Below are positions 15,899 through 16,582 of a stretch of DNA of 64,000 bases, one piece after another. Numbering within the stretch: the first letter of the stretch is position 1; every line of letters starts with the position of its first letter. The notes under the pieces were generated by a model that did no database searches, was not told the DNA's origin, and saw nothing but the letters and a program-made list of their open reading frames with translations. A program made the position numbers and the translations under genes. The DNA comes from Escherichia coli (GTDB taxonomy: Bacteria > Pseudomonadota > Gammaproteobacteria > Enterobacterales > Enterobacteriaceae), in NCBI RefSeq assembly GCF_011045215.1, contig NZ_CP049201.1. One strand, 5' to 3'.

Positions 15899-16079
15899 GT
15901 CATGATACCTTGGTTAAAAAACAAACAGCAATTATGTGCCGAATATTCGCAGTGTAACTTTTTCCACATGCGTTGTTCAATTCTCTGATTTATATTGCTT
16001 TTTAGGTTGCCGGTAATCGAGTTGCGCAACACTGCAACGGGTTTTCCAAATCTTGTCACTGAAAATAAACAGGATCTTA

Positions 16080-16445
16080 CACCATGTTATCCACAGAAAG
16101 CTGGGATAACTGTGAAAAACCTCCACTACTGTTTCCATTTACAGCCTTGACGTGCGACGAAACTCCAGTTTTTAGTGGTTCAGTGCTTAACTTAGTGGCA
16201 CATTCTGTGGATAAATACGGCATTGGTTGATCTTTCGCCAACCCGTAAATGAGAGGTGTGACCTGGGTCACGAATTACTCTTTTTCATTACTTAAATTAC
16301 ATGTAATGCATTGACTGATAATGAATATTTTAAAATGTCTATATCGGGCTTATTCAGAATGCTCCGGGTTTTCCCGTAGTAATTCCGTAGTTCTTCACAA
16401 CTCTATCCACAGAAAAGGTGAATAAAAACGGCTATCCACCCCTTC
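16080..16445. promoter_or_regulatory. DnaA-box cluster in mutH-rppH spacer, consistent with DARS2
   Basis: Consensus DnaA boxes TTATCCACA (16087-16095) and TGTGGATAA (16206-16214, opposite orientation), plus CTATCCACA (16403-16411) and CTATCCACC (16432-16440), in a 680-bp non-coding AT-rich spacer; DARS2 is described in the mutH-proximal intergenic region. Confidence 0.5.
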
Positions 16446-16582
16446 CTCTGTTTATAACTCTGCACATAACTGTGAGTTATTCAATTGTTATTAGTGTGTA
16501 ATGCCCTGCAGAGAGTGGTTTACCGTCTTCCTGGAGTATGAAACAATCATTCGTATATAAAGCTTTATATTGAGGTAGTCCG

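Follow-up and report, generated by a model that had tools for sequence, protein, structure and literature searches.

What purpose is served by the cluster of DnaA boxes lying between mutH and rppH in the Escherichia coli DNA analysed here, a stretch of 64,000 nucleotides referred to below as the window? A preliminary description, made from the letters of the sequence, had placed in this spacer a DARS2-like element, and we conclude with a probability of about 0.97 that the cluster is DARS2, the second DnaA-reactivating sequence of E. coli and a non-coding element; no evidence against this identification was found. It is correct but already known, and its novelty is nil because few non-coding loci of E. 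coli have been characterised as well. DARS2, as the chief chromosomal site at which ATP-DnaA is regenerated, helps to set the timing of replication initiation in E. coli. Its recognition from raw sequence indicates that functional non-coding elements can be found in this way, and the identity of the element gains nothing new from it; the added value is modest, and consists in the conservation of parts that have been treated as dispensable or left out experimentally. Our analysis concerns sequence identity, layout and conservation, and the biochemistry attributed to the element would be that of the published K-12 work.

The mutH-rppH Spacer and Its DnaA Boxes

The window is E. coli DNA, and the spacer with its flanks matches the K-12 order mutH-ygdT-rppH-ptsP. 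On the left lies mutH (15209-15898, minus strand), and on the right rppH, also called ygdP or nudH (16583-17113, plus strand), which is followed by ptsP; the spacer between them occupies 15899-16582 and measures 684 bp, close to the 680 bp first given for it. It was found in 5424 of 5426 complete E. coli genomes, is 99.9% identical in many RefSeq E. coli chromosomes, and differs from MG1655 at four bases in 684 bp (15913, 16054, 16293 and 16569). Synteny with K-12 puts the window around 2.97 Mb, consistent with the position of DARS2 about midway between oriC and terC; the 64-kb window itself holds neither oriC nor ter. The spacer has a G+C content of 39%, as against 51% for the window, so that the AT-rich setting noted at the outset is borne out. 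Searches of 14000-18500 at a permissive E-value, and of the whole window at the gathering threshold, placed no Rfam family in the spacer, and the block ATTTACAGCCTTGAC (16131-16151), inspected by eye on either strand, gave no convincing sigma-70 reading.

Two perfect DnaA boxes, TTATCCACA at 16087-16095 on the plus strand and its reverse complement at 16206-16214, lie in opposite orientation exactly where they had been reported. The word TTATNCACA matches three times in the 64-kb window, and two of these matches are the perfect boxes of the spacer. At the scale of the window such a count is unremarkable, since three or more perfect matches occurred in 27 of 100 shuffles, and the AT-rich composition of the spacer (39% G+C) raises the background for words containing TTAT; a chance build-up of box-like words in AT-rich spacer DNA is one conceivable account of the cluster. 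At the scale of the spacer this account fails. For 684 bp the expected number of perfect boxes is about 0.019, whereas two fall within 128 bp (Poisson P(≥2) ~1.7e-4). Of boxes with at most one mismatch, a 684-bp tile holds 0.61 on average and the spacer nine (P ~2e-8), making the spacer the densest such tile of the window. The boxes and their spacing are, moreover, kept across six genera, and they match exactly an experimentally characterised element. Box density, conservation and the match to a known element refute the chance reading, to which we give no weight.

Published DARS2 Sites in the Window

The identification of the cluster as DARS2 is carried by the published reagents. Primers and oligonucleotides from Kasho 2014 (Table S1, PMC4245941), Miyoshi 2021 (Table S2, PMC8682772) and Frimodt-Moller 2015 (methods, PMC4585315) were mapped, and all mapped 3' parts of those tested match the window exactly, so that every named DARS2 site is identical to that of K-12. 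Both the alignment of the core and the location of the spacer agree with DARS2 as well. The full-length 455-bp DARS2 was amplified with MutH-2 and MutH-4 (Kasho 2014, PMC4245941); the genomic parts of these primers match 15994-16012 and 16430-16448, and the full-length experimental fragment thus delimited, 15994-16448, spans exactly 455 bp. It is identical to MG1655 at 453 of 455 positions, the differences being T for G at 16054 and T for A at 16293, neither of them in a named site. The element of the window is accordingly that of K-12 as studied in the Fujimitsu/Katayama laboratory (Kasho 2014, Miyoshi 2021, Kasho 2025) and by Frimodt-Moller 2015, at the same locus and with all named sites identical, apart from these two substitutions at unnamed positions in a strain that is not K-12; identity at the named sites suggests that it would be active in this strain too. 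The size of DARS2 has also been given as 256 bp (PMC11724364), which probably corresponds to 16193-16448, from the left end of FBS2-5 to the end of MutH-4 and so taking in the core, a boundary reached by arithmetic and stated in no paper. The labels of boxes I, II and III, and of IBS1 versus IBS2, were assigned from orientation (PMC11724364) together with the gaps between primers.

The core, comprising boxes I-III (16391-16425), is the part removed in published core deletions. It is bounded by MutH-15 (16368-16390) and MutH-14 (16426-16446), and it also lies between the homology arms of the independent deletion primers MutH-10 and MutH-9 of Frimodt-Moller (PMC4585315). Box I (TTATTCACC, 16417-16425, minus strand), box II (CTATCCACA, 16403-16411, plus strand) and box III (TTCTTCACA, 16391-16399, plus strand) each carry one mismatch; boxes I and II are inverted and face each other head-to-head across a gap of 5 bp, and boxes II and III are arranged head-to-tail with a gap of 3 bp. 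The remaining named boxes lie in gaps between published primers: box IV (TTATTCAGA, one mismatch, 16350-16358, plus strand) between Ksh-30 and Ksh-31, the regulatory box V (perfect TTATCCACA, 16206-16214, minus strand) between Ksh-32 and Ksh-33, and the auxiliary box VI (also a perfect match, 16087-16095, plus strand) between Ksh-34 and Ksh-35. Boxes IV and VI were dispensable for the stimulation of initiation in plasmid assays (PMC4245941), and box IV is not conserved across genera in the six-genus alignment.

The anatomy drawn in the preliminary description was thus right about the presence of boxes and the identity of the element, but it recognised only one-third of the catalytic core, namely box II, and what needs correcting is the assignment of the active boxes. 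The two perfect boxes do not form the catalytic part; they are the auxiliary box VI and the regulatory box V. The two near-consensus boxes then listed are of unequal standing: that at 16403-16411 (plus strand, one mismatch) is core box II, while a fourth, CTATCCACC at 16432-16440, has two mismatches, which makes the term generous, and lies outside the core deletion, in retained DNA, with no name found for it. Three boxes with one mismatch that have names in the literature had been passed over (16350-16358, 16391-16399 and, on the minus strand, 16417-16425), and further boxes with one mismatch, which are unnamed, lie at 15960, 16111 and 16449.

The binding sites of the two accessory proteins are likewise in place. 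The 29-bp IBS1-2 block moved in the traIBS constructs matches exactly at 16304-16332 and lies between the core and the Fis sites, as in published DARS2. It consists of two 13-mers 3 bp apart (16304-16316, plus strand; 16320-16332, minus strand), each with one mismatch to TAANNNNTTGATW, and these are the only matches to the IHF motif in the spacer, barring one other weak match. The motif WATCAANNNNTTR that had been put forward as a check hits both published IHF sites, again with one mismatch each. A PciI site (ACATGT, 16299-16304) adjoins the IHF block, in agreement with the PciI site described beside the IHF site (PMC11724364). The scan for Fis motifs, also suggested beforehand, returned as its sole perfect consensus match in the spacer the published FBS1 (GGTCACGAATTACTC, a perfect GNNYANNNNNTRNNC, 16266-16280), a non-essential site situated in the gap between Ksh-4 and Ksh-3 and inside the oligonucleotide FIS-1U. 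The Fis sites FBS2-3 (16215-16239), which are essential (PMC4245941), correspond to the gaps MutH-25/MutH-24 and Ksh-21/Ksh-20, with a crucial 21-mer at 16215-16235 and a substituted stretch at 16222-16239. The 52-bp FBS2-5 oligonucleotide of Miyoshi 2021 (PMC8682772) matches exactly at 16193-16244, a fragment inside which box V falls, and the non-essential FBS6 (16022-16038) occupies the gap between Ksh-9 and Ksh-10.

Nucleotide Exchange at DARS2 and Its Control

From the K-12 literature, inactive ADP-DnaA would be reconverted to ATP-DnaA at this element before each round of replication initiation, K-12 DARS2 having been reported to promote the IHF- and Fis-dependent release of ADP from ADP-DnaA and to raise cellular ATP-DnaA (PMC4245941, PMC11724364). 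Three ADP-DnaA molecules would bind the low-affinity core boxes I-III (16391-16425); the protomers on the inverted boxes I and II would meet head-to-head via their AAA+ domains, the protomer on box III would stabilise this pair from a head-to-tail position, ADP would be released, and apo-DnaA would leave and rebind ATP. PMC6868365 and PMC11724364 describe this same sequence of head-to-head I/II contact, stabilisation by box III and rebinding of ATP by apo-DnaA.

The weak DARS2 core would depend on IHF at IBS1-2 (16304-16332), whose bending of the DNA would be favoured by negative supercoiling, and on Fis at FBS2-3 (16215-16239), which would contact DnaA. Negative supercoiling stabilises the binding of IHF, and Gln68 of Fis is required for the direct contact between Fis and DnaA (PMC11724364); shifting the IBS or the FBS by 5 or 10 bp lowers activity (PMC4245941). 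Timing would arise from the binding of IHF solely in the pre-initiation period. At high levels, ATP-DnaA would spread as an oligomer from box V (16206-16214) across the weak boxes beside it and displace Fis, amounting to negative feedback, and box V has indeed been described as seeding an ATP-DnaA oligomer over weak boxes Va-c that evicts Fis (PMC8682772). The abundance of Fis would link DARS2 activity to exponential growth, in line with the report that Fis abundance confines this activity to growing cells (PMC4245941).

A different use of the same boxes can be envisaged, in which the cluster is mainly an operator through which DnaA controls the transcription of mutH and/or rppH, or else a passive titration sink of the datA type. 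DnaA is known to act as a transcription factor, and the promoters of the two divergent genes fall within the spacer: a weak promoter-like site at 15958-15931 is directed towards mutH, and a TTTACC-17-AACAAT block conserved in the six-genus alignment 5' of rppH (16516-16550) looks like a putative rppH promoter. The distances speak against an operator, however: 150-500 bp separate the named boxes from the start of mutH, and about 100 bp separate the core from the putative rppH promoter downstream of it. A promoter and terminator scan of 15700-16800 returned nothing beyond the shuffle expectation (one promoter found against 2.1 expected). Photorhabdus keeps the element even though rppH no longer adjoins it, the published deletions and substitutions alter the level of ATP-DnaA and initiation (PMC4585315, PMC4245941), and datA occupies another locus and has another set of boxes (PMC11724364). 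We regard the operator or sink as improbable almost to the point of neglect, although the cluster may have a secondary regulatory role beside the nucleotide exchange attributed to DARS2.

Comparison with DARS1, datA and oriC

A known element comparable with that of the window is DARS1, whose core in K-12 reads TTATCCACT-5-TGTGGATAA-3-TGTGTATTA. The two share their core geometry, with a gap of 5 bp between the inverted boxes I and II and then 3 bp to box III, which has the orientation of box II, as well as the chemistry of ADP release (PMC11724364). They differ in locus, since DARS1 lies in the bioD-uvrB spacer whereas the element of the window is flanked by mutH and rppH, and in core sequence, the core boxes of DARS1 being of higher affinity (box II is perfect) and those of the window weak. 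DARS1 is, in addition, a 101-bp element without a need for IHF or Fis (PMC11724364), whereas that of the window possesses a regulatory arm with sites for both. Flanks and core sequence together rule out that the spacer is DARS1.

With datA, which lies outside this window, the spacer shares a non-coding cluster of DnaA boxes that has an IHF site and influences which nucleotide DnaA carries, but datA acts in the opposite direction, by promoting ATP hydrolysis, and is located beside glyVXY with another arrangement of boxes (PMC11724364). Like oriC, the spacer combines DnaA boxes with IHF, Fis and GATC sites; unlike the head-to-tail arrays of oriC, its key boxes are arranged head-to-head, and its locus is not gidA-mioC. 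No match to the 13-mer GATCTNTTNTTTT of an oriC-type unwinding element was found in the spacer with up to two mismatches allowed, and an origin of the oriC type was ruled out for want of this consensus.

Conservation within E. coli and the ygdT Reading Frame

The spacer had at first been taken as non-coding, with its small open reading frames more likely spurious; RefSeq, however, annotates inside it a 48-codon frame, ygdT (16084-16230, plus strand), which raises the question whether the conservation of this interval reflects a real small protein gene, with the perfect boxes incidental or regulating ygdT. The annotation is found in K-12 and is nearly universal among the E. coli genomes listed, and in five of six E. 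coli strains sampled (98.2-99.3% spacer identity) the frame is intact and carries the same protein accession. Comparison with the spacers of five other genera (Enterobacter, Serratia, Yersinia, Pantoea and Photorhabdus), located by a scan with the core pattern, gives a different picture. Four of the five have CTG, TAT, TAT or CAG where the ATG stands in E. coli, and the frame is broken in four, by stops in Enterobacter (one), Serratia (three) and Photorhabdus (four) and by a 1-bp deletion in Yersinia; the Pantoea interval lacks only the start codon, and an intact ygdT is kept in none of the five. Identity to E. coli over the five genera is 0.615 at the first codon position, 0.616 at the second and 0.686 at the third, so that the wobble position, instead of being relaxed, is the most conserved, the opposite of a coding signature. 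In the six-genus alignment the conserved blocks are discrete and coincide with the DnaA and Fis sites. No NCBIfam model matched YgdT or three other spacer frames, and a full-text literature search yielded no functional study of ygdT, its results being almost entirely the polymerase motif 'YGDT' and incidental gene lists.

Conservation within the species points the same way. As a measure we took the share of about 5,424 complete E. coli genomes in which a given segment of the window is matched with 99% identity or more. For the 164 bp from box VI to box V, which make up the body of ygdT (16055-16218), this share is 5409 of 5424 (99.7%), whereas coding controls of the same length reach 94.8% in rppH and 42.5% in mutH. 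An interval more invariant than real genes argues for a constraint on every base and not on a protein. The segment with box IV, the core and two further blocks termed E and F below (16349-16489) attains 99.8% (5415 of 5424), while that with FBS1 and IBS1-2 (16240-16350) stands at 32% and the mutH-proximal segment (15899-16054) at 54%. Among eight sampled E. coli sequences the spacer has 28 variable sites, only one of which is in ygdT and none of which is in 16055-16218 or 16349-16489. It follows from the comparative evidence that ygdT is very unlikely to be a conserved protein-coding gene, and a small protein as the cause of the conservation strikes us as very improbable; the thousands of genomes in which it is annotated probably owe this to an open reading frame that happens to overlie a conserved DNA element, and the annotation would then be an artefact. 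The early judgement that the small frames are spurious is therefore supported by the cross-genus comparison in the case of ygdT, though short of proof.

The same figures bear on the functional map of DARS2. Across the approximately 5,400 E. coli genomes, the 'dispensable' right half of DARS2 is as invariant as the core, a feature for which no description was found in the DARS2 literature examined. At the population level, the half called dispensable in plasmid assays thus equals the catalytic core in invariance and exceeds the neighbouring genes.

Conservation beyond the Published Fragment

In the six genera compared (Escherichia and the five named above), the core, box V, the GATCTTT of FBS2-3 and box VI are conserved with fixed spacing. 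Boxes VI and V are 119 bp apart (118 in Yersinia) and box V and core box II 198 bp, and this rigidity holds even where the intervening sequence can barely be aligned. Conservation of the core-IBS-FBS spacing has already been published; an extension to box VI and beyond the core was not found in the DARS2 literature examined.

Box VI is embedded in a conserved block of 47 bp, AATRAACAGGATCTTACACC-nnn-TTATCCACAG-n4-TGGGATAAC (16064-16110), in which, according to the six-genus alignment, TTATCCACAG is followed by TGGGATAAC after a variable 4-5 bp. About 5 bp from box VI lies an inverted, low-affinity box-like word, TGGGATAA, with the same gap as between core boxes I and II. Two further blocks, each resembling a DnaA box, are situated directly outside the right end of the 455-bp fragment: block E (TGTTTATAACT, 16449-16459, minus strand, one mismatch) and block F (CTGTGAGTTAT, 16470-16480, minus strand, two mismatches). 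Published strains carry a tet marker precisely at 16448/16449 (primer D2TET-1). Block E is 45 bp from core box II and 21 bp from block F, distances that do not vary among the genera in which the search pattern gave a match; block F was additionally aligned in Enterobacter. The DARS2 literature examined yielded no description of the box VI block with its inverted weak box, or of blocks E and F. In Photorhabdus cinerea, E and F stay with the core although an sgrR-like regulator and leuDC take the place of rppH as its neighbours, and their retention there argues for assigning them to DARS2 and against a part in the rppH promoter.

These observations lead us to a tentative proposal, which we hold to be possible but on balance doubtful: that the unit under selection exceeds the published minimal (~233-256 bp) or 455-bp DARS2 in size and rigidity, being an array of about 420 bp (16064-16480) whose spacing is nearly invariant across Enterobacterales, and that triplets resembling the DARS core beside priA and rpmE, discussed below, are possibly functional outside the enteric bacteria. 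The array may include a second head-to-head pair of boxes around box VI together with blocks E and F, and these parts may have an unrecognised role on the chromosome, for example in looping by DnaA, IHF and Fis or in the timed release of IHF, an event that is still unexplained. The added parts were scored as dispensable, or were never assayed, in work with multicopy plasmids, and the pattern of conservation suggests that experiments in the chromosomal context might uncover further functions of DARS2.

DARS-Core-Like Triplets in Other Proteobacteria

The core geometry can also be followed beyond these genera. The pattern TTATNCAC-N6-TGTGGATA-N4-TGTG specifies 19 bases, so that about two chance matches are expected in the collection searched; it matched at least 120 loci. 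Among the 120 matches listed, five are of the DARS2 type and about a dozen of the DARS1 type, beside bioD and/or upstream of uvrB. None of dnaA, dnaN, rpmH, rnpA, yidC and recF adjoins any of the 120 matches listed, which indicates that the loci are not origins, and on these gene neighbourhoods an oriC or dnaA-promoter context was ruled out for them. A literature search, which did not cover the original DARS paper (Fujimitsu 2009), found no paper on DARS-like sites outside the enteric bacteria.

Among the matches listed, 24 lie about 100-660 bp upstream of a divergent priA, the distance being about 100-200 bp in most of the listed loci where the N-terminus of priA could be aligned, and 11 adjoin rpmE. 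The priA- and rpmE-linked loci among the matches listed come from Xanthomonadales, Methylococcales, Burkholderiales, Nitrosomonadales and others. Such triplets, which occur in many gamma- and beta-proteobacteria, may represent DnaA-reactivating sites that function outside the enteric bacteria. Other groupings among the matches listed comprise 13 Pseudomonas loci situated 29 bp from a gene for a 151-aa membrane protein, opposite an FKBP-isomerase gene, and eight copies in Legionella nagasakiensis, five of which have a common flanking sequence.

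Conserved Sequence around Box VI and beyond the Published DARS2 Fragment

Box VI of DARS2 (16087-16095), though termed dispensable, is situated within a 47-bp block (16064-16110) which is common to six enterobacterial genera, namely Escherichia, Enterobacter, Serratia, Yersinia, Pantoea and Photorhabdus. It is paired with an inverted TGGGATAAC across a gap of about 5 bp, and this geometry is the same as that of boxes I and II in the DARS2 core. Within E. coli, the 164 bp around box VI retain at least 99% identity in 99.7% of 5,424 genomes, and are more conserved than the coding DNA of either rppH or mutH. 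Between box VI and box V (16206-16214), the CTGnTTnnATTTACAGCCTTGAC block (16131-16151) is likewise kept in all six genera; it matches no named DARS2 site, and a search for a promoter reading of this block gave nothing convincing.

Directly beyond position 16448, where the published 455-bp DARS2 fragment stops on its right side, blocks E and F (TGTTTATAACT and CTGTGAGTTAT, 16449-16480) resemble DnaA boxes on the minus strand, and are kept in the six genera with constant spacings of 45 bp and 21 bp. In published strains, a tet marker was inserted exactly at the junction of the 455-bp fragment and these blocks. Further toward rppH, a conserved GTGGTTTACCG...GTGTGAAACAATCA stretch (16516-16550; TTTACC, 17 bp and AACAAT preceded by TGn) looks like the promoter of rppH, and is missing at the Photorhabdus locus, where rppH does not adjoin. 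In Photorhabdus cinerea (L108, 3300-7600), the DARS2-type element still adjoins mutH, and beyond it an sgrR-like regulator gene followed by leuD-leuC takes the place of rppH-ptsP, which therefore places a rearrangement breakpoint just past block F.

Split, Plasmid-Borne and Missing Spacer Matches in E. coli

The mutH-rppH spacer is without a match in 2 of 5426 E. coli genomes. In NZ_CP084026.1, NZ_CP123260.1 and NZ_CP147069.1 it is matched at two separate places, each with partial coverage, and the breaks fall near window positions 16318, 16112 and 16432. These split matches suggest that DARS2 is interrupted by insertions. One copy of the spacer is carried by a plasmid.

DARS-Core-Like Triplets in Other Bacteria

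Genome contigs were scanned for a box, 5 bp, an inverted box, 3 bp and a further box, and at least 120 such loci (L003-L122) were found in gamma-, beta-, some alpha- and zeta-proteobacteria, as well as a few Firmicutes. At least 24 are located upstream of a divergent priA, at about 100-660 bp and mostly 100-200 bp, while rpmE adjoins at least 11, and at least 13 occupy one fixed Pseudomonas site beside a gene for a 151-aa membrane protein. None among the matches listed is located at dnaA or oriC. Legionella nagasakiensis (L055-L061) has at least eight motif copies in one genome, and because five of these have in common an upstream sequence of about 40 bp (AAGGCTTAT...AATCAT...) as well as a downstream sequence, the comparison suggests that the motif is carried by a dispersed repeat.

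Other Features of the Window

Rfam gathering-threshold matches outside the spacer comprise OmrA and OmrB (9174-9458), one tRNA (37963-38036), ES036 (39464-39506), GcvB with the adjacent STnc490 (43099-43438), and CsrB (61619-61978); these are expected E. coli sRNA genes, with no relation to DARS2. The sole other TTATNCACA match within the 64-kb window, TTATGCACA on the minus strand at 54962-54970, is isolated and consistent with chance.
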